From Naegleria gruberi (taxonomy: Eukaryota): 64,000 bases of DNA. Positions 8,676 through 31,246 of the stretch are shown here, in pieces (within the stretch, counting starts at the first letter, position 1; each line of letters begins with the position of its first letter). The translations under genes and the position numbers were made by a program. The notes beneath the pieces were generated by a model. It was given only the letters and a program-made list of their open reading frames with translations. It had not been told where the DNA came from and made no database searches. The stretch lies in the NCBI GenBank assembly GCA_000004985.1, contig GG738891.1. One strand, written 5' to 3'.

Positions 8676-8781
8676 ATGTATTATTTCAGAATTAAAAAGA
8701 TTACCTCTGCATGATGATACTGAATATTCACTTTGATCATTGTTTTTGGATGAAAAATTTTACGGAGGGAATTTATTCACG

Positions 8782-10914
8782 ATGTATGAGCTGAAGAACT
8801 TGAATGAGACTCAAAGCACCATCACATCTACTCAACTGAGCTCAACTGTTTCCAGTATTTCATCTGTTAGCTCTACTATTGGATACCTAGATTCTTCTAC
8901 TCGATCAACTGTTGTAGAATATTTTCTGGTTACATTACAAAAAGCCGATTTGAATAATGTTCAATTATCAACTGAAGATTTTCAAACAAGTTTATCTTCA
9001 CTTTCCTCCATTGAAAATCAATTTATTTCATCTGTAGAGAGGAGATTAACTGTCACCAGAAAATTTACTAAAATCATTAATATTTACAATGTGTTAACTC
9101 AAATGAAATCTAAAAACTTGATAGAAGATTCATCACCAATTAAGATAATTGGAAAGGTCTATAAATCGTATTCCAATTATATCAAGAGTTCAACAGTACA
9201 AGATTTAATATTTGATGATGAAACAATTATGCAGTCAAATGGATTGCCATCATCCAGCATTGTAACAGTTAAAAGTTATTACAATGAATTAGTTTCAAGT
9301 GATTTCAAGTATTCAAAAGTTTTAGAGTTTACCCTCTACGATGTGAATACCAACCATGCAATTGAGAATCTAAATGTAAATTCACAATTTTTTATTCCAT
9401 TCACTTTAAAAAGATCATATGTTTCAAGCAATTGTAAATTTCAAAGCTACTCAGGAGAATTCATACAAAACTATTGTACGACATTTACAGACAATTCTGG
9501 TTTCCTATCACTTAATGTGTCCAGAACTGGTGTTTATCTATTGGAATATCAACAAGTTGCAGAGATTACACCTCTTCCACCAACAGCAAGTACAAGTCAA
9601 CAAACTGTCAAATTGTCCACAACCAGCAGTGACCCTTTAATTATTGGATTATCTGTAGGATTACCTGTCGCTTCCTTGTTTGTCGTTAGTATTGTTATAA
9701 TCATAGGTTTAATTATTATTTTGAGGAAGAATAGAAATTCCAAATCATTAGTTGAAGAAAGTCAAAATGAAAGAAATTACTTTGATAAATTGAAATCTCA
9801 AAAGGAAATGGAAATACCCACCATAGATATTGAATTGAAAGATAATGCCGATTTTATTGAAATTGAGGAATCTTGGTCACATAATGAAGGTCCATTATTG
9901 ATTCCATCAGATGAGATCTCAATTGTTTCAAAGCTAGGAAGTGGAGGGTTTGGAAAGGTGTACAAAAGTGAATATACACCAAGAGGAAAGGAAAAGAGAT
10001 TTGTTGCAATTAAGAGTATAAACGATGAAGACTCGATATTGTCTAACTCTACTTCAAATCCTTCCTCTTCATCAAGTCAAACCATTTCAACTGAAGCTCT
10101 GCTGATGTGTTCACTAGATCATGAAAATATTGTGAAATGTTTTGGAGTTTCTATAAAGGATGGCATTCAATTTATTGTAATGGAATATGTGGATGGTGGA
10201 AGCTTACAAGATTTGATACATGAATTGAAAAATGGAAGAAAAGTAATGGATTTGGATGAAAAAATCAAAATATTGTTACATATTTGTCATGGAATTAATT
10301 ATTTACATAATTTACCAAGACCAATAGTTCACAGAGATTTGAAACCTGGAAATTGTTTATTAACCAGATCGACAATGTGTTGTAAATTATGTGATTTTGG
10401 CTTATCAAAAGCATTTTCAAATTCATCAATTAACTCAATGACAAACAACATTGGGACTTTATTCTATATGAGTAACGAAATTATTGAAGGAATGGTCAAG
10501 AAGGAATTCGCCAAAGCCATTGATTGTTACAGCTTCTCAATTTTGATGTGGGAACTGCTGTTTGAAGAGAATCCTTACATTTACAAGAATATAGGAAAGT
10601 TATTCTTTGAAAGAGATTTTGAGGGTTCAGGATATTCTGGCTTGGTTGGTTTTAATATATTGCCAAGAGTTATGAGTGGGTTGAGGCCAGTGATTCCCTT
10701 CCAAAACGATAGACAATTATGTAAATTGTGGACCCAAAAGTTTATTCATTCCAAATTTACAAATGAGAGTATTGTTGAATGTTTATTGAAGATGAAGGAC
10801 TTGATGGAATCTTGTTGGCAACCAACTCCAGAAAAAAGACCAAGCTTTGCATCTGTGATTAAAACACTGAACGACATTAGAAATACGTTGCGTTTGAACA
10901 AACAGTGTGTTTAA
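8782..10914 (+). CDS. Single-pass transmembrane protein kinase (TKL-like). It has an S/T-rich N-terminal region, one TM helix and a C-terminal kinase domain.
   Basis: First in-frame ATG is at 8782; the ORF-track start at 8740 is TTG. TM helix LIIGLSVGLPVASLFVVSIVIIIGLIIIL followed by basic RKNRNSK. Kinase motifs GSGGFGKVYK, VAIKS, HRDLKPGNCLL, DFGLS, MWELL. No signal peptide detected, so an upstream exon is possible. Confidence 0.75.
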   Translation: MYELKNLNETQSTITSTQLSSTVSSISSVSSTIGYLDSSTRSTVVEYFLVTLQKADLNNVQLSTEDFQTSLSSLSSIENQFISSVERRLTVTRKFTKIINIYNVLTQMKSKNLIEDSSPIKIIGKVYKSYSNYIKSSTVQDLIFDDETIMQSNGLPSSSIVTVKSYYNELVSSDFKYSKVLEFTLYDVNTNHAIENLNVNSQFFIPFTLKRSYVSSNCKFQSYSGEFIQNYCTTFTDNSGFLSLNVSRTGVYLLEYQQVAEITPLPPTASTSQQTVKLSTTSSDPLIIGLSVGLPVASLFVVSIVIIIGLIIILRKNRNSKSLVEESQNERNYFDKLKSQKEMEIPTIDIELKDNADFIEIEESWSHNEGPLLIPSDEISIVSKLGSGGFGKVYKSEYTPRGKEKRFVAIKSINDEDSILSNSTSNPSSSSSQTISTEALLMCSLDHENIVKCFGVSIKDGIQFIVMEYVDGGSLQDLIHELKNGRKVMDLDEKIKILLHICHGINYLHNLPRPIVHRDLKPGNCLLTRSTMCCKLCDFGLSKAFSNSSINSMTNNIGTLFYMSNEIIEGMVKKEFAKAIDCYSFSILMWELLFEENPYIYKNIGKLFFERDFEGSGYSGLVGFNILPRVMSGLRPVIPFQNDRQLCKLWTQKFIHSKFTNESIVECLLKMKDLMESCWQPTPEKRPSFASVIKTLNDIRNTLRLNKQCV

Positions 10915-11111: not shown

Positions 11112-11894
11112 ATGTCTCAACACCTCTCCACAAACATTGACGAATTCATAAAGAAAGGCTACAAGGGATGGTATTATAGCAAAATCCCATCATTCCGTCC
11201 TGGACGTTCCATCCTCTCCACCTATGAATTATTTTCATTCCGAGAATTGCCTTTTATTCATTTCCTTGATGAGGATTATAAAGCCTTTGTTGAAAGATAT
11301 AATTTGGAGGAGAATGAGACACAAGATGATGATGAAATAGTTCTTTCTTATAGTAGTAATAGTAGAACAAACACTTCTTTGGAATTAATACCTCCAAAGA
11401 TTGTTCATCTTTATGAAAATAGCAATATAATTGCAAAATATTTAAAATCGGAAATTACTACGTTTTATGTATCGGAAGGAAGTGTTGTTCGTTTGAAACG
11501 ATATGAGGATTTGGATTTGTATATTCTTCCCTTTTTTAAAGATGCTATTGGTGTGATGAATTGGTATGCCCTGTATGATTTGAAGAAGAGTAGTGGAGTG
11601 GGAAGTTTTATGCATCCCGTGGTTGTTTCTGGTTTTCCAGAGGATTTATCAATGCTGGATTTGAATGATTTAGATTTGGTTTCAATGAATGTTCATGAAT
11701 TTATTGGAAGAATGCTTTTGGAAGGTCATTTGGCAAGAGAAATGAAACGTGTTAATGGAGATGTTCAAGCTCTTGTGAATCCATTGTGTCGTGAATATGT
11801 AGAACATTATTTGAGAATTCAGAAAAGAAGGAGTGAAACCATATTTATTGGAAATGAGCATGTTGGCAATTTTAGTGATGTGAGCTTTGCTTAA
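11112..11894 (+). CDS. Hypothetical protein.
   Basis: ATG in AAAAAATG context, 260 aa, no recognised motif. Its 3' end overlaps the convergent dioxygenase gene by 23 nt. Confidence 0.45.
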   Translation: MSQHLSTNIDEFIKKGYKGWYYSKIPSFRPGRSILSTYELFSFRELPFIHFLDEDYKAFVERYNLEENETQDDDEIVLSYSSNSRTNTSLELIPPKIVHLYENSNIIAKYLKSEITTFYVSEGSVVRLKRYEDLDLYILPFFKDAIGVMNWYALYDLKKSSGVGSFMHPVVVSGFPEDLSMLDLNDLDLVSMNVHEFIGRMLLEGHLAREMKRVNGDVQALVNPLCREYVEHYLRIQKRRSETIFIGNEHVGNFSDVSFA

Positions 11895-12669
11895 TTTTGA
11901 ACATGGTATCAGTTCTGAGGATGTACTTGACGCCATCTGTTACTTTTTCTCCACAATGTAACATATCCATATCTTCCTGTGGAAAAACAATACAAGTTCC
12001 AGATCTCTCAATAACTCTGGCAGTCTCCTTTCTATGATATTGCTCAAAGAAAATTGTCGATCCACCCTTAAAATCACCCTCCAATTGTGAATTCAAATAG
12101 ATCATAAATGTCAATGCACTCTTGGTTCTATTACTTCTATTGGAATAGGTACCATCAGTGTGAGTTCCAAAATAGTGACCTGGCTTATATTTACACAATC
12201 TCCAACGATTATTCAATGAATGCAATGTCATATCCATTCCATGATGATTCAATTCTTGTGGCAAGTGATCCTTCACTCTATTCCATATCACTTGTGTCAA
12301 CGCATCATCATCAACCATCAATCTATCATTGAATCTATCATTATAAGCATAACAATACGAATCAGCATCTTCATATCCAAGTTTTTCACTCAATTCAATC
12401 AATAATTTACATTCCTCCTTCAACAAGACATTTTCTAAAATCAAAACTGGTTTTCCATTCTTTTCAACCTTCTCCAAATGTCTCACATTGATCTTTTCCC
12501 TAACAATCTCATCATTCTTTGCCAACAAATCACCAATTGACAATTTTATACTTTTCATTGAATCGGCAATTTTTTCATCAAAGCCATCAGCAACCACCTC
12601 CGAGGAGAGAACTTGCTGTGAGAGAAGAGGTGTATACTGAGAGGATTGCCACTTTTGAGACATGAACAT
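11872..12669 (-). CDS. 2-oxoglutarate/Fe(II)-dependent dioxygenase, prolyl 4-hydroxylase (P4Hc)-like.
   Basis: HxD…H…R arrangement: YFGTHTDGTY, then …GGSTIFF…, then DMLHCGEKVTDGVKYILRTD. ATG in AAAAAATG context on the minus strand. Confidence 0.7.
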   Translation of the reverse strand: MFMSQKWQSSQYTPLLSQQVLSSEVVADGFDEKIADSMKSIKLSIGDLLAKNDEIVREKINVRHLEKVEKNGKPVLILENVLLKEECKLLIELSEKLGYEDADSYCYAYNDRFNDRLMVDDDALTQVIWNRVKDHLPQELNHHGMDMTLHSLNNRWRLCKYKPGHYFGTHTDGTYSNRSNRTKSALTFMIYLNSQLEGDFKGGSTIFFEQYHRKETARVIERSGTCIVFPQEDMDMLHCGEKVTDGVKYILRTDTMFKIKQSSHH

Positions 12670-12956: not shown

Positions 12957-15194
12957 ATGATGATGAACAGAAATAATTCAATTCTTTCCTACAGTTCGGA
13001 ATTTCATCATTATTTCGAATCAAGAGTGGGGAGTCTGCTCACTCTCGATCAAACCTTCCCAGCCAAATATTTAGCAAGTGATCAATATTTCGATGATAAG
13101 CCAACTCATTCCTTGATTACTTTACAAATAATTCCGAATTTAATTAATAATAGTAATGATGATGACGATGATCTGGTTGGTGATCAAAGAGGAGATGAAT
13201 TTACCATCATGATGAAGAATCGAGTGGAAAAGTACATTCAAGCAAGTAGGAAATTTAAGAATAACATTCCCTTGATGAAGTGCTTTGAAGAGGTGACTGA
13301 TGGTGGATCTACATTGACTTTACATTTGTGTTCCTTTCCATTCAATTTGAAAATTCAATCGGAAATGAATAACATGAGGATGATTAAGGAAGTGTTTCAT
13401 AGGAGAGAAGATTTGATAACTTTGGAAAAGTATTTGGAAAGTAACTATTCACTGGAGAATGATTATGGAATGTTGATTGGAATTTTACAGGGTTTGGCAA
13501 AATCTCTATTTGAGTTGCACTTCATTGGTAAATTGAGCCATAATAGTATTATACCAAGGAATGTGGTAATTTCAAGGAAGAATTCAACAGCTCTGATTGG
13601 ATTGCCATCGTTTGGATTGGATGATGTGGTTGGAACGTTGAATGATGAGCATTTGACCTATTTTTCACCTCAAGTTTTGGAAAGATTTGAAAATGGAGAG
13701 AAAACAGTCTTTTCCAATAGTAATGATGTATACATGTTTGGTACATTGATTATTAGGATATTATTGGGCGAGGAGTTTGATGCCAAGTATTTGGACACTG
13801 AACGAATGGATGGGGAATTGAAGGATTTGAAATCAAGAATATTGAAACAGCTCACTAATAATATGCCAATGAGGGAAATCTATGAAAATATAGCAGATAT
13901 GGCATTCAGATGTATTGACAGAAATGAATCTAAACGACCTTCAATAGCTGAAGCGTTTCAACTATTGGAGAAACAAGAACCAATAATCATCCTGCCATCT
14001 TCCGAGTCTGCACTTATCTCAAATTCCAGTTCTGAAACCCCAACTTTTACCGTATCCTCACGTTCATTCAATACCTCAAAATTTTCGCTATTTTCTAACC
14101 TTTTTGGAGTCAAGAAAAAGGACCGAGTGCCATCTTTAAGAAATGATGTGGTAAATGATGTATGTGATGACATATCAACAATTGAAAGTTTACCAATTAT
14201 TGTTCAGTGTGAAGAAAAGAAACTAGATGAAGAAGAAACAAAACCAGTGGAGAATCCAGAAGATTTGGATGAGGAAAAGAAGAAACTCTACATTATTGAT
14301 AAGAGAATTAGTGAGGGAGCTTCTGCTGTTGTGTTCACTCTCAAGAGACCTTCCGAATGTGTCATGAAGAGATACAAGAAAGGTCACGAATCGGATTACA
14401 AGAGAGAAATTAGATGCCTACAAAAACGTCATCAGAATATTGTTACCTTAATAGACAATTATTCATTTAAGGAAGGAGAAAATTTTAATCATGTAATTAT
14501 TATGGAATATTGTGGATATGGAGATTTGTATCGATTGGTATCAAGTAGTGTACAGAAAAGTGCAATCAAACCAATTGTAAGTTTTGTAATGGAAAGTTGT
14601 TTAAATGGAAAACAACAACATTTTAAAATAGAAATTCCTAACAATGGGTATTCAATTATTTGAGGCATTGTGTCACCTCCACTCTAACCAATATGTACAT
14701 TGTGACGTTGTAAGTTTCTTAAACCTTCTTAAACATTCTAATATTCTTTTAAGAAACCTGTAAAGCTTGGCGACTTTGCATTTAGTGTGAGAAATGGAGA
14801 AAGTTCACCAGGATTGACGTTCCACTATGCACCTCCTGAGCTTCATGAAGGAAAACCAGCCATCATTGAATGTGATGTTTACAGTGCTGCTTGTTCTCTA
14901 TTCGAAGTACTTGTAAAGAAGAAGGTTAGTTTGAAAGATAAGGATTTCACACAGGTTTGGGATCAACACAATGCCAATACTAGATTCTATTCCAGGACCA
15001 TGTCTAATCCTCATGCCATTAGATTGTTCAATCTGATGAAAGAATGCTTGGAGCCTGATGCGAAAAATCGATGCTCTTCAAAGAAGGTCCTTTCTGAAAT
15101 GATAGATATTCGAAACAATTTTTGTGCAACCCTTATTCAAAAGATATTTAGAGGATTTAGAGTAAGAAAGAGCCTTAAAAGAAGAATGAATTAA
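12957..15194 (+). CDS. Tandem pseudokinase + atypical kinase domain protein with a C-terminal IQ motif. Three exons: 12957..14576, 14632..14709, 14754..15194. Introns 14577..14631 (55 nt) and 14710..14753 (44 nt).
   Basis: Exon 1 ends ...SAIKPI followed by GTAAGT. The 78-nt middle exon encodes KFLTMGIQLFEALCHLHSNQYVHCDV (kinase subdomain VIb with HCD instead of HRD). Exon 3 begins KPVKLGDFAFS (DFA instead of DFG) and ends with the IQ motif LIQKIFRGFRVRK. The N-terminal domain is kinase-like but lacks catalytic residues (HNSIIPRNVVIS, LPSFGL). All junctions are phase 0 and in frame. Confidence 0.65.
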
Positions 15195-15463: not shown

Positions 15464-16669
15464 TTATGAAAGAGAAACAATACTTTGTGAAGTGATAATG
15501 TCACGAGTGGAGGGCACGTTATCGTAGCTCTTTGAAACCATTCGTAATATTAACTCAACCAAATCCCTTCTGTGTTGAATGCATTTAGATAGACGTGAGT
15601 ATAGAGCTTCGTTAATGAGAGTTTCCTCTTCGTTTTGTTCGTAAAGTTGGGAAAGAATCAATTCCTTGTCCCTGCTGCAAATTTGATAGAGTGTAACACC
15701 CAAATGATAAACATCCATTATTAATTTCTTGTCATTGAATGAGTTGTATGCCTTTGGTAAGGTGAATCTCTTCTCAGAGTTGGATGCGAAGGATTGTTCT
15801 TTCCATCCAAAGTCAGACAATACTACTTCAATCAAGTCGTAATCATCATTGAATGTCTTGATAAAGATATTGTGTGGTCTGATATTACCGTGATGGAGAC
15901 CCTTATTATCATTCAGGAATTGTATAGCTTGTGTAATTTGTGAAATGACTTGAGCAATCATTTCGTCTGAGAGTTGAACATCTTCTTCGTCCATGAGTGA
16001 TTGTAAATTACCCATTTCAATGTATTCCATCTCCACGGCAACTGTTTTTTCACCAACAATAGAAGAATCATAAATATGTACAAAAAAGTCTTGATAATTT
16101 GGCAGGTGCATAATTCGCTCGAAATGGACATTCAATAATTGTGCTTCTTTAACCGTAGAGCACTGAATTAGTCTCAACACTTTGTATTGGGATTCGTGTG
16201 GGTGTTTGATAAGATAGAGGCATGAATTGCCCTTTCTGCTCAGCAATTCAACACTTTCGAATTTTGCAAAGTAATGTTCTTGCACTTCCCAGCATGATTC
16301 AAATTCAAGTTTAGACACAAATCTTGGGGATGCAACTCGTGGTTGTTCAGATATCGACTTGGTAAGCAGTGAAGAACCTCTTCTTCTCCTTCCTCCTGCC
16401 ATTGACATTCTATTCGAAACCATTCTTGCCTCCTCTTCATGTTGCATAATAGTAGCAAAGTTACAATCGAATAATGGATTAAACTGAGTAGTCCATTCCA
16501 AATTATTCTCATCATAAATTTCCTCATTGCTACAATAACATGTCGACGACGATAAACTCGACGACGAAGCAACATCTGGTGATAATTCCTTATTGATTAT
16601 TGGATTGGCTCTCACCGAGTGATGATTAGCAGCAATCTTGACCATCAACTTTTTCATCAAGTTAGTCAT
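15464..16669 (-). CDS. Pseudokinase (protein-kinase-like domain lacking the catalytic Asp).
   Basis: Kinase-fold pattern …YKVLRLIQ…VAVEMEYIEMGNL…LHHGNIRPHNIFIK (HGN instead of HRD)…LSDFGW… ATG in AAAATG context on the minus strand. Confidence 0.6.
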   Translation of the reverse strand: MTNLMKKLMVKIAANHHSVRANPIINKELSPDVASSSSLSSSTCYCSNEEIYDENNLEWTTQFNPLFDCNFATIMQHEEEARMVSNRMSMAGGRRRRGSSLLTKSISEQPRVASPRFVSKLEFESCWEVQEHYFAKFESVELLSRKGNSCLYLIKHPHESQYKVLRLIQCSTVKEAQLLNVHFERIMHLPNYQDFFVHIYDSSIVGEKTVAVEMEYIEMGNLQSLMDEEDVQLSDEMIAQVISQITQAIQFLNDNKGLHHGNIRPHNIFIKTFNDDYDLIEVVLSDFGWKEQSFASNSEKRFTLPKAYNSFNDKKLIMDVYHLGVTLYQICSRDKELILSQLYEQNEEETLINEALYSRLSKCIQHRRDLVELILRMVSKSYDNVPSTRDIITSQSIVSLS

Positions 16670-27105: not shown

Positions 27106-30100
27106 TTATTGAATGTTACAAATTTGAGATTGGTTCTTTTCTCCCTTTGATTTCTTTCCACTCTTTGGAGGAGGAACACTATCGTCCAAAGCATTAGAAA
27201 CTTCCTTAACAGCAGTCTTTGTCAAAGATCTAGCCTTTCTCATCATGGCATCGAAATCATTGTCAGAATCAGAATCACTGCTGCTTCCTGAATCACTGTC
27301 TCCAACAAGATCATCAAATTCGGAGAGAATTTCCCTAGCTTTTTGCTTAGAACTGATAGCAGCAATATCTTGTTCAAGTTTCTTGATATTCTTCTTGAGT
27401 TTTCTGTAATACTTTGAACCGACATTGGCCTTACCAGTCTTCTTAACTCTTGAACGCAAAGATTCATTTTCAGCCAAAGCAATGTTAAGATCAACAATCA
27501 AGTTTGTCTTTTCGCTGGTTAATTGTTGATTAACTTGCTCCAAAGTTGTAATCTTTTCCTTCAAAACTGATGGATCAACTACAGCAGCTTCAACATTAGC
27601 TTCAACAGTCTTCAATGAAAGGAATGGATCAGCAGAGTTATCAACATAATTTCCATTCATTATAGCCAAGTGGAAGCTTCTCAATTGATTCAATCTGGTT
27701 TCAAACATATCACGAGTCCATGTTTCAGAGTGACCAGTTTCAAGATCAGTAACTTCAACTTCAATTTGAGAACCGACAAGTTTAAGATCAATAGCAATAC
27801 TTCTCTTAAGTTCAGCTACCATGATAGAAGCTTCTTGAATCCAAGGAACTAATTGAGAAACTGAATCGGTACTAGCAGAGGAGGCAATAACAGTTGTCTT
27901 TACAGCTTTTTCTATGATTATTTGGGACTTTTCAGCCATTTCTTGTTGAAGTCTATTTTCCATATCGAACAACTTCATAGACATTTCCAATTCCTTTCTT
28001 TGGAAGTCTCTTTCCTTTTCTTCCTTTTCTAATTCAATCAATCTCATTTGTTCTAACATTGCCTTAGTGTCCTTTTCGGCATTAAGAAGAAGTTCACTTT
28101 GCTTAAGAGCTAAGGATCTTGCCATTTCTTGTTGTTGTCTTTCCATTTCAACCTTTTGTCTTTCGATTTCTTCTTGTTGTGCCATCTTTTCTTCCAAATA
28201 TTGTTGCTGGAGGAGAGTAAACTTTTCTTCTGCCTTTGTGGATGCTGAAGCAGCAACTGTATTTGATTTTTGGATTTGAGTCTTGAAAATAGCTCTTACA
28301 GCTGTCATCTTGAGTCTGTTGTCACTTAACTTTCTTTCATAATCTTCTCTTTCCTTTTCCAATTGCTTTTGATTTTCTTGCTTGGCAGAAACGAGTTGAT
28401 TTCTGAGTTGATTGACTTCTTCTTCACTAGCTCCAGATTCAATCTTAGCAAGGAGCTCTCTTTCCTTAGCTTGGAAAGAACCAACCAATTCCTTTTCTCT
28501 CAACATGAACTTTTCCTTTTCTCTTTGCATGATGTCTTCATGTTCCTTATTCTTTTTTGTCATTTCTTCTTCAACCTTTGAGAGTTGTTCTTTATACTTT
28601 CTAGCTTCTTCTTCAGCTTGTTTTGATTTTTCTAACTTTTCCTTGAGAACAGAAACTTCAGAGTTGATTTGGACTCTGATTCTTTCTTCAGATTGAGCAA
28701 ACATTTCATTTTGAGCCTTGATAACACCGTCAATTCTTTCCTTTTCCTTCTTCAATTCTTCTTCATATTTGGAAACGAGAGCACCATTGTGTTGGTTCTC
28801 AGAAATCAACTTTTGAATTTCAAGTTCTCTTTGTAATTTTTCATCAACTAAAAGTTGCTCCTTCTTTTGCAAAAAGTCCTTTTCTTCGTTGATCTTTTTT
28901 TGATATTCAGCTTCCTTTTCCAAGATCTTTTGTTGCAAAGCTTGATTTTCCTTTTCTAAATCTTCCTTATGCTTCTTTCCAATGTTAATTTCAGCCATAA
29001 GCTTGGATTCAAGTTCCATGATTTGCTTTTGGTATGATGAAGAAATATTCATCTTGGAAGCTTCCAACTCTCTTTGGTACTGCAAAACTTGTTCTTCATT
29101 CTTTTTCTTTTCAGATTCCAACATTTGTTCAATTTGCTTTCTTCTTTGTTCGTCATTCTTGTTTTGCAACAATTCAGCTTGCAACAATTTTTCCTTAGTA
29201 GCATATTCAGCTCTGAGTAAATCTTCTCTCTTCTTGGCATTTTCCATTTCTTGTTGAATGAGATCCTTTTGGGCTTGTCTTTGCTTTTCAATTTCAGACT
29301 TGACACTGTTGATGGTTTCTTGCATTTCTGTTTCTCTCTTCTTATGTTCTTGAACAAGTTGGTTAGTCTTTTCATCAATCAAATTCTTACTGAATTCATC
29401 CCATGCAAGTTTCCAATCAGAGTTGTTAACAGCGCCTTCACTAGGGTTATTGTATTGATAGATCAATCTGGAACCGATAACAAGTCTGTCTCCATTCTTG
29501 ATCTTTGTCTTTTCCTTAATTTCTACACCGTTAACATAAACTTTGGCATTTTCAGATGGAGTGATAAAACCGGCAGAAATTGTGGCATGTGAGTCTAAAA
29601 TACCAGCACCTTGAATTCTGACAGTGTTTCCTTCAGCAGCACCAATATTTGTTGGTTCTTGAACATAATAGTTAAGTTTTCCACTCAACAATGGATCTTC
29701 ATTAAGGTTACTAATATGCAACTTGTTCTTATCGAAATCAAGTTCAACATTCATTTCCTTGAAAAATTCTTCTCTCTCCTTTGCCATTTCTTCAGTTCTT
29801 TTAATCTTTTCTTCGGTGGTCATTTGCATTTCAGTGATAAGCTTTTGGGAGGCATCTAATTGCTCCTTCAACTTGTCATACTCTGCTTGGGCAATTCCTC
29901 CAGGAACTCCAGTAGAACCCTCAGTATTTTCTCCAGCAGGAACAATACCCTTACCAGCAAGTTGATTCTTCAATCTTTCAACTTCAGCTCTCAATTGACT
30001 GATAATCTTGGCAGAAGGATCTTCGTTAACAATAGCCTTGTTGACAATTTGTTTAGCTCTGTCAGCATATCTGAGGGTTGAGAGAGATTCATCATAGTTG

Positions 30101-31246
30101 ACATCAGCAGGAGAAATAGCAGCAATCATAATAGTTCTAGAGTTACCACCCAAAGATTCCTTAAGAAGGTGAGTTAACTTGGAATCTCTGTATGGAATGA
30201 AGGCAGTAGAGTTTTTTCCTGTGCACTTATCAGCAAGAGCCTTAATAACATTACCCAAAGAGGTCAATGAAAGGTTAATGTTAATACCTTCTTGAGCTCT
30301 AGCACCAGTAGCACCAGTTCTGGCCATTCTTTCGGAACCTGCCAAGTCGACAAGATTGATGGAGGAAACCTTTTGAACTTTTTGCTTTGTTTCAGGATGT
30401 TGAACGGTTTGCTTTACATATAAAATAAAAACGGTGTGAGCTCTAGATGATGTCTTATTCATGGCAGTAGCACCAGTAGTTCTAGCATCTTCACCTTGCT
30501 TCAACAACTTTAAAATTTGATCCTCTCCTTGAGCAACGTGCTTTGACAAACCCTCTATGATTTTTTAAATATTCCTCAATAAGATCCAACAATAAATTCT
30601 TCACTTACCAATATAGACACCTGTTTGTGGATTTTCTCTGATTTTTAGACCACCTGTTGGATTGTTCTTTGGATTGAAAAGATCCTTAATTTCTTCGTTA
30701 TAAATTTCCAACATGGAGGCTTCAACACCATATTCAATAGGAACTGTGTTTTGAGACTTTGATTCTTCAATCTTTTGGAAAATACGCTTAGAAGCCATAG
30801 TGACTAAACCTTCATCCTTTCCTGGATAACCAATCATACTGTATGATTTACCAGAACCAGTTTGACCACTATTATTATTGTTGTTTAAATACAAATTATT
30901 CTCAACAATTTAACACTTACTAGGCAAACATGGAGGTGTTGTATCCTTGCCAACAGTTAGCAAGCATAGATTCTCCCATATCATTCCACAGAACTTTGTT
31001 ATCAGCAAAGTTGGCATCAGCGCTATTAAAGCTCCAATAAGAATAGTCAAAAGTAAATTTGTTTTCCTTTCCTGAGGCAGGATCGCTTTTCCCAAGTCAA
31101 TACAACCACAATTTCCTAAAAATTACTTACACCAAGATGGTCTGTGGACCATTCATTTGTACAATACATTTTGATTTACCTTCAATTTCGTAATCCTTGA
31201 ATGGTCTTACTCTCACAGCAACCTTAACTGAATCAGCTGATGACAT
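27106..31246 (-). CDS. Kinesin-3 family motor (Unc104/KIF1-like) with FHA domain and long coiled-coil tail. Four exons: 31131..31246, 30921..31085, 30609..30868, 27106..30554. Introns 31086..31130 (45 nt), 30869..30920 (52 nt), 30555..30608 (54 nt).
   Basis: Exon 1 [39 protein letters not shown] followed by GTAAGT. Exon 2 [54 protein letters not shown](Y). Exon 3 [11 protein letters not shown]…[34 protein letters not shown](E). Exon 4 [11 protein letters not shown]…SSRAHTVF…[10 protein letters not shown]…[23 protein letters not shown]…[10 protein letters not shown], then FHA (…[33 protein letters not shown]), then coiled coil. Junction phases are all consistent (2, 2, 1). No PH domain at the C-terminus. 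Confidence 0.9.

Follow-up and report, generated by a model that had tools for sequence, protein, structure and literature searches.

Does the second of two tandem kinase-fold domains still work as a kinase once part of its catalytic loop is gone? This question is raised by NAEGRDRAFT_71527, a Naegleria gruberi gene on the plus strand at positions 12957-15194 of a 64,000-nucleotide (nt) stretch of contig GG738891.1 (NCBI GenBank assembly GCA_000004985.1), the whole of which is called the window below. Its product carries an N-terminal pseudokinase domain, a second kinase domain with a shortened catalytic loop and a C-terminal IQ motif. On balance, we consider it probable that NAEGRDRAFT_71527 is a real and intact gene of a Heterolobosea family and that it specifies a loop-deleted, calmodulin-tethered double pseudokinase.

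In the course of events that we propose, the second domain of the other family members, which has the full catalytic set, would presumably be an active kinase under the control of the adjacent pseudokinase and of bound calmodulin. A 30-nt in-frame deletion in exon 3 of the N. gruberi copy would have removed the segment QNI(F/L)LxxDGx, and the Gly of DFG and an invariant Gly of the activation segment would have been changed as well. The resulting protein most likely no longer transfers phosphate and probably persists as a calmodulin-binding double-pseudokinase scaffold or regulator, the catalytic version presumably being kept by the paralog NAEGRDRAFT_45977.

Gene model and family of NAEGRDRAFT_71527

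At this locus the open reading frame (ORF) track gives two ORFs, 12957-14663 (568 amino acids) and 14787-15194 (135 amino acids), separated by a gap of about 120 nt. Removal of two introns joins three exons into a 2139-nt in-frame coding sequence of 712 amino acids plus a stop codon. The spliced product is 100% identical to XP_002673323.1 of NCBI/JGI (also EFC40579.1 and D2VRB5), where it is annotated as a "predicted protein"; the GenBank model has 710 amino acids and starts two codons later, at the third Met (12963). A first-pass annotation made from the sequence alone had described the two-ORF split and had placed introns of 55 and 44 nt at the junctions 14576/14632 and 14709/14754. Both descriptions agree with the coordinates found here, and this annotation had correctly re-derived a three-exon structure that was already in GenBank.

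Exon 1 (12957..14576, 540 codons) encodes the N-terminal pseudokinase domain, a Ser-rich linker and the N-terminal lobe (N-lobe) of the second kinase domain. It is followed by intron 1 (14577..14631; 55 nt, GTAAGT…AATAG) and by exon 2 (14632..14709; 78 nt), whose 26 codons encode KFLTMGIQLFEALCHLHSNQYVHCDV. This small exon had been predicted to encode subdomain VIb. The exon is real, but most of it corresponds to helix E (subdomain VIa) and only its last four residues, HCDV (14698-14709), are the first four of VIb. Intron 2 (14710..14753; 44 nt, GTAAGT…TTAAG) has TCTAAT, which resembles a branch point, and then a pyrimidine tract, and exon 3 (14754..15194; 146 codons and the stop) begins with KPVKLGDFA (14754-14780).

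Both introns have GT-AG boundaries, preserve the reading frame and lie at positions that are conserved in orthologs; the position of intron 1 and the 5′ position of intron 2 are kept in all three orthologs compared. In the N. lovaniensis ortholog C9374_009231 both introns measure 59 nt and lie at identical codon positions, and exon 2 is again 78 nt long. Introns of 67 and 76 nt are found in an N. fowleri-type contig, whose exon-1 ORF product clusters with FDP41_001997 at 90% identity, and introns of 37 and 35 nt in a metagenomic relative, in both cases at the same positions and flanking a 78-nt exon 2 that ends in HCD[VI]. When all GT/GC-AG pairs were listed, 14710/14753 was the only frame-open pair that retained both the HCDV and the DFA segments. 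The N. gruberi DNA of the window is AT-rich (∼33% GC) and has short GTAAGT…AG introns; as the other likely introns in the window measure 45 and 54 nt, sizes of 55 and 44 nt are normal here. No RNA structure was detected in or around intron 2 (z-score −0.39).

The 712 codons run without a frameshift or a stop in a genome of 33% GC, and the blocks DVYSAACSLFEVL.KKKVSLK and GTLI.RILLGEEFDAK are nearly identical between the N. gruberi protein and that of N. lovaniensis. An intact frame of this length together with such long conserved blocks argues that the gene is real and under selection.

To define the family, a profile built from the alignment of the N. gruberi and N. lovaniensis proteins was searched exhaustively against 1.84 billion representatives. 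All matches at E ≤ 1e-98 were Naegleria and Willaertia proteins, apart from one Logan/ENA sequence that clusters with N. fowleri proteins. This group includes the N. gruberi paralog NAEGRDRAFT_45977 (715 amino acids), the N. fowleri counterparts (FDP41_009127 cluster) and three Willaertia magna proteins. Weaker matches were environmental sequences of the same layout, and the next ones were unrelated kinases of oomycetes, plants and birds. From this search, the family appears restricted to Heterolobosea, that is, to Naegleria, Willaertia and environmental relatives. Its members have in common an N-terminal pseudokinase, a C-terminal kinase domain and the core [IL]Qxxx RGxxxR within the last ∼25 residues. 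The relatives NAEGRDRAFT_45977, C9374_009231, FDP41_001997 and FDP41_009127, and ABK040_003774, ABK040_006833 and ABK040_012245 of Willaertia magna, are all annotated only as hypothetical or predicted proteins. The orthologs and the paralog resemble NAEGRDRAFT_71527 in architecture, in the motifs of the first domain and in the conserved blocks of the second, but in them the catalytic loop is complete and D[FY]G is kept.

A literature search with the gene identifiers and on the Naegleria kinome, pseudokinases and intron lengths returned no paper on NAEGRDRAFT_71527 or its family, and this pseudokinase–kinase–IQ family of amoeboflagellates is previously undescribed. Dead kinases and tandem kinase domains are common and would not surprise a kinase specialist. 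The gene itself is ordinary, and what is new is the family context rather than the gene model: N. gruberi has two copies of a family confined to Heterolobosea, in which a pseudokinase is joined to a NEK-like non-RD kinase and an IQ motif, and NAEGRDRAFT_71527 is one of them. The intact paralog and orthologs and the loop-deleted copy form a natural before/after pair that bears on the role of a kinase scaffold without catalysis. Since the pathogen N. fowleri has members of this family too, a lineage-specific kinase whose regulatory layout is unusual could be of some interest as a target.

Several observations concern the relatives themselves. The linker between the two domains (13960-14290) is ∼100 amino acids long in N. 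gruberi, whereas it is ∼450 amino acids long and rich in Ser, Pro and Gln in N. lovaniensis and N. fowleri; this accounts for protein lengths of 712 versus ∼1060–1073 amino acids. The metagenomic ortholog with the 37- and 35-nt introns (JGI metagenome 3300002220) has a complete ubiquitin domain in the linker (Pfam ubiquitin, E 1e-29), where the Naegleria orthologs have low-complexity sequence. A relative of NAEGRDRAFT_45977, at least 90% identical to it, occupies positions 424-2586 of a contig of the ENA metagenome ERZ929261 as one uninterrupted ORF of 720 codons, and this contig shows that an N. gruberi-like amoeba was present in that metagenome. Among the relatives examined, only the clade-A orthologs showed the two micro-introns. 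Closer relatives were also sought by a metagenome scan, but all that it returned were distant kinases (≤39% identity, mostly of bacterial type), which do not help in dating the deletion.

Two kinase domains, a shortened loop and an IQ motif

The second kinase domain (14295..15095, amino acids 447-680) spans both introns and matches Pfam Pkinase (PF00069) with 114.1 bits, against a gathering threshold of 31.7. From its alignment to the relatives and to NEK1 and NEK7, we observed that the β3 Lys (in CVMKRY, 14358-14375), the αC Glu (in YKREIRCL, 14397-14420), the Asp of HCD and the Asp of DFA are all present, and the domain continues with HYAPPE at 14823-14840. Two features of a kinase domain are missing: the catalytic-loop Asn together with strand β7, and the Gly of DFG, which reads DFA (14772-14780, in exon 3). 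The loop reads HCDVKP-VKLGDFA in NAEGRDRAFT_71527 and is ten residues shorter than H[CS]D[VI]KPQNI[FL][LIV]xxxxG(x)[ILV][KR]L[AG]D[FY]G, the pattern shared by the other eight members. The lost segment, QNI(F/L)LxxDGx, includes the catalytic-loop Asn, which binds Mg, together with strand β7 and the turn from β7 to β8. The alignments to NEK1 and NEK7 likewise open a 10-residue gap exactly at KP^VKLGDF. Among the nine family members compared, the ten-residue gap and DFA are unique to NAEGRDRAFT_71527.

Of 54 columns in which the other eight members are all alike, NAEGRDRAFT_71527 deviates at 10 in a leave-one-out comparison, while each of the other members deviates at 0–6, mostly by conservative changes. 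The deviating columns include the catalytic loop, the change of DFG to DFA and that of GGT to GLT in the activation segment. With the loop lost and both glycines replaced, the second domain is most likely catalytically dead or crippled. The first-pass annotation had pointed out the shortened spacer and DFA and had suspected an atypical, possibly inactive domain, and this suspicion is strengthened by the uniqueness of both changes. The kinase-profile alignment that it proposed as a check returns the Pkinase match and the four catalytic residues, with the loop Asn and the DFG Gly lost. It had also listed HCD in place of HRD. That reading is correct, but HCD (HSD in the paralog clade) is the norm of this family of non-RD kinases and hence is not a degeneration.

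The first domain was said to be clearly a pseudokinase, and this assignment appears sound. Its core (13362..13961, amino acids 136-335) is supported by the Pfam matches and by the match of a family profile to kinases in the PDB. The Pfam matches of the single sequence are marginal: 30.2 bits for Pkinase (gathering threshold 31.7) and 23.7 bits for PK_Tyr_Ser-Thr (threshold 23.1). A profile of the first domain from seven family members matches the solved kinases IRAK4, TYK2, NEK7, BRAF and KSR at E values of 2.5e-11 to 1e-9, the match to NEK7 reaching into the N-lobe. In the first domain of the Naegleria and Willaertia members, Gln stands in place of the β3 Lys, Asn in place of the HRD Asp and Ser in place of the DFG Asp. 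The catalytic loop reads SHNSIIPRN (13536-13562) and DFG is replaced by PSFG (13605-13616). The loss is family-wide, with HNS for HRD, Ile or Leu for the catalytic-loop Lys and PSFG for DFG, and the motifs HN[S]ILP[KR]N, PSF[GY] and NDEH.TYFSP are conserved in the family.

The IQ motif IQKIFRGFRVRKSL (15135..15176), contained in the C-terminal peptide NFCATLIQKIFRGFRVRKSLKRRMN, lies in a helix running on from the end of the kinase domain. The motif fits the full consensus [FILV]Qxxx[RK]Gxxx[RK]xx[FILVWY], a pattern that is matched only twice when the window is translated in all six frames, and the IQ core is found at the same C-terminal place in nine family members, in line with the C-terminal IQ motif proposed at first. 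With the Pfam model PF00612 the motif of the N. lovaniensis ortholog scores 16.2 bits. The most likely ligand of this motif is calmodulin or a calmodulin-like light chain, which it would tether to the protein. The earlier proposal of Ca2+/calmodulin regulation is one reading among others, as IQ motifs typically bind Ca2+-free calmodulin.

We also modelled the second domain with AlphaFold2 from an alignment of 14 sequences. The model has a kinase fold, with a predicted local distance difference test score (pLDDT) of 80 and a predicted template modelling score of 0.79, and a long C-terminal helix (residues 234-270 of the modelled fragment) carries the IQ motif. A Foldseek search with this model returned only kinases, of generic character and with no subfamily signal.

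Several of these results, and some others, weigh against a gene that is intact and a product that is a double pseudokinase bound to calmodulin. The pLDDT stays at 78–83 around the shortened loop, and the confident predicted fold, which says nothing on activity, does not point to a collapse. Of the five classical catalytic residues, four are retained, so that residual or atypical activity may persist; it is conceivable since some kinases work without the catalytic-loop Asn, an example being CASK, which lacks the canonical Mg-binding residues. An acceleration of the N. gruberi protein is modest: the Tajima relative-rate counts against N. lovaniensis are 34:23, 36:24, 30:33, 41:21 and 40:19 for five outgroups, the excess is significant with only two of them (41:21 and 40:19), and the paralog clade is balanced. 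The IQ motif scores 18.5 bits with PF00612 (E 0.0015), below the gathering threshold of 20.3. The splicing is supported by sequence signals and conservation; no transcript-derived sequence of NAEGRDRAFT_71527 was found in the collections searched, which hold a single N. gruberi assembly and sequence for this locus.

Some of these points would fit a second domain that is shortened and still active in an atypical manner, being Mg-independent or using another residue in place of the loop Asn, so that the protein would be a true pseudokinase–kinase pair. The β3 Lys, the αC Glu and the Asp residues of HCD and DFA are kept, the ORF is intact, the rest of the domain is well conserved and the predicted fold holds around the loop; active kinases without canonical residues, such as CASK and WNK, are known. 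However, the change is no mere substitution, as it took away the Asn, strand β7 in full and the β7–β8 turn, and two more family-invariant glycines are altered (DFG to DFA and GGT to GLT). Moreover, all eight relatives keep the canonical loop, which is therefore likely to have been needed for the ancestral function. We regard an active second domain as unlikely, if still worth keeping in mind.

The single assembly and the lack of transcript-derived matches would rather fit a gene that was recently inactivated and is becoming a pseudogene, or a 30-nt gap that is an assembly or allelic artefact with the gene model bent around it, and the most radical changes at invariant positions do fall on the N. 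gruberi branch. Neither the annotated protein nor the 568-amino-acid exon-1 ORF gave an independent match in exact look-ups, and no N. gruberi-like fragments appeared in two word-indexed protein searches. These word-indexed searches also missed strong family members, which were recovered only by the exhaustive hidden Markov model search, and absences in them are thus weak evidence. A decaying or misassembled gene is improbable in our judgement: the 712 codons are free of frameshifts and stops, the splice signals are canonical and at conserved positions, the gap is an exact multiple of three and the sequence outside the lesion is strongly conserved. Nor would an assembly error account for DFA and GLT.

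How the catalytic loop was lost

Exon 3 starts with AAACCT (KP), the orthologs having AAACCT or AAACCA at this place, and in N. gruberi GTAAAGCTTGG follows directly. At this point 30 extra bases, placed after the KP codons and before T[TC]AAAGCTTGG, are present in the orthologs of N. lovaniensis and of the N. fowleri-type contig. From this comparison, the loop was quite likely removed by one in-frame loss of 30 nt directly behind the second codon of exon 3.

Intron 2 offers a second candidate for the fate of the loop. It contains 2.4 copies of a 10-nt tandem repeat, TTCTTAAACA (14716..14739), and the stretch AAACATTCTAATATTCTTTTA (14731..14751), which in the frame of exon 2 reads KHSNILL and resembles the missing loop peptide KPQNIFL. 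In that frame the intron as a whole reads VSFLNLL-KHSNILL-RNL and then meets a stop; the open reading is VSFLNLLKHSNILL, and its second half mimics the deleted catalytic-loop peptide.

This resemblance could be the trace of a splice-site shift, in which the ancestral 3′ splice site was lost, a cryptic AG ∼24 nt into exon 3 was used instead and the intron swallowed the loop. The old exon start, KP[S/Q]NILL, would have become the 3′ half of intron 2, drifted and gained the 10-nt duplication; the resulting mRNA would be the one that the deletion gives. When one copy of the repeat is taken out, the intron yields AAACCTTCTAATATTCTTTTA, which reads KPSNILL, and MAFFT aligns the intron stretch with the KPQNIFL codons at the start of the N. 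lovaniensis exon. Reading the 64-kb window in all six frames gives 12 occurrences of the pattern K..N[ILVMF]3, or ∼9e-5 per position per strand, so that ∼0.003 would be expected per 44-nt intron. On the other hand, the AAACCT (KP) immediately after the AG would then be a coincidence of similar or smaller probability, and the family-invariant Gln codon CAA would have become TCT while the flanking codons stayed readable. The series of TCTAAT, T-rich tract and AG also has the branch point and pyrimidine tract look of neighbouring and orthologous introns, and a single 30-nt deletion is simpler. We consider the shift of a splice site rather unlikely and the likeness of KHSNILL to the loop probably due to chance. 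If true, such a shift would be a clean natural example of the birth of a pseudoenzyme by splice-site migration.

Other readings were rejected. Gene conversion from NAEGRDRAFT_45977 does not provide a source for KHSNILL, the codons of the paralog (AAA CCA CAA AAC ATT TTA ATA) being no closer. No alternative splicing restores the loop: retention of intron 2 gives HCDVVSFLNLLKHSNILLRNL and then a stop. A GTAAAG donor at 14760 would keep KHSNILL and lose DFA.

Relation to known kinases and the surroundings of the gene

By sequence, the nearest solved relatives of the second domain are NEK1 (4apc, E 2e-9) and NEK7. The matches to these two (E 2e-9 to 4e-8) are closely trailed by twitchin, Aurora A and MAP3K12, with PKR also among the top ones, and as other kinase groups follow so closely the affinity to NEK is weak. 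The loop of the relatives, H.D.KPQNIFL…DG..KL.DFG, closely resembles that of NEKs. The family differs from NEKs in an identity of only ∼25–30%, in having its kinase domain C-terminal, behind a pseudokinase, in its non-RD loop (HCD/HSD) and in its IQ motif. NEKs usually carry the kinase at the N-terminus; their families are large in flagellated protists and often include dead members, many of the NEKs of Giardia being catalytically dead.

A degenerate kinase-fold domain directly N-terminal to a second kinase domain is likewise found in the JH2–JH1 module of JAKs, in GCN2 and in plant tandem-kinase resistance proteins, and by analogy this layout suggests intramolecular regulation. The accessory domains of those proteins are FERM/SH2 in JAKs and RWD/HisRS-like in GCN2; these are absent here, the protein is of Ser/Thr type and Heterolobosea-only, and in N. 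gruberi the second domain is also degenerate. The first-pass annotation had called the architecture JAK-like, which stands for the order of the domains and fails for homology. A JAK-type tandem kinase with a homolog of the JH2–JH1 module would have this order, and TYK2 JH2–JH1 is indeed among the PDB matches of the first-domain profile, but that match is no better than those to IRAK4, NEK7 and BRAF. Besides the kinase and IQ matches there is no Pfam match in the protein, neither to FERM nor to SH2; the loop is of the Ser/Thr type (HCDVKP, and KPQN in the relatives; DxKP) and not HRDLAARN; the best relatives of the second domain are NEK1, NEK7 and Aurora; and the family is confined to Heterolobosea. 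We therefore rejected membership in the JAK family, which is hardly credible.

Calmodulin-regulated or IQ-bearing kinases include the CaMK family, CASK, myosin III and obscurin. As in CaMKs, a calmodulin-binding helix, here predicted, directly follows the kinase C-terminal lobe. It differs in being an IQ motif (IQxxxRGxxxR) and not a 1-5-10 or 1-14 CaMK regulatory segment, and, apart from the kinase fold in general, the sequence of the second domain shows no affinity to the CaMK group.

Further kinase-fold genes lie near NAEGRDRAFT_71527, so that together with it three are found within 8 kb. The convergent neighbour on the minus strand (15464-16669), 270 nt from the stop codon of NAEGRDRAFT_71527, encodes a kinase-like protein of 401 amino acids (Pfam Pkinase, 43 bits). 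Its loop, LHHGNIRPHN, has HGN for HRD, but its DFG is intact (SDFGWK); it is another candidate pseudokinase. On the other side, a plus-strand ORF of 724 amino acids (8740-10914) has a strong TKL-type kinase domain (PK_Tyr_Ser-Thr, 166 bits). In between lie a 2OG-Fe(II) oxygenase gene on the minus strand (11872-12669) and a plus-strand ORF of 260 amino acids (11112-11894) with no Pfam match. Elsewhere in the window, the segment 22001-24000 has a GC content of 0.39 and a GC skew of +0.24, and the segment 28001-30000, over part of a minus-strand ORF of 1147 amino acids (27106-30549), has an AT skew of −0.31.

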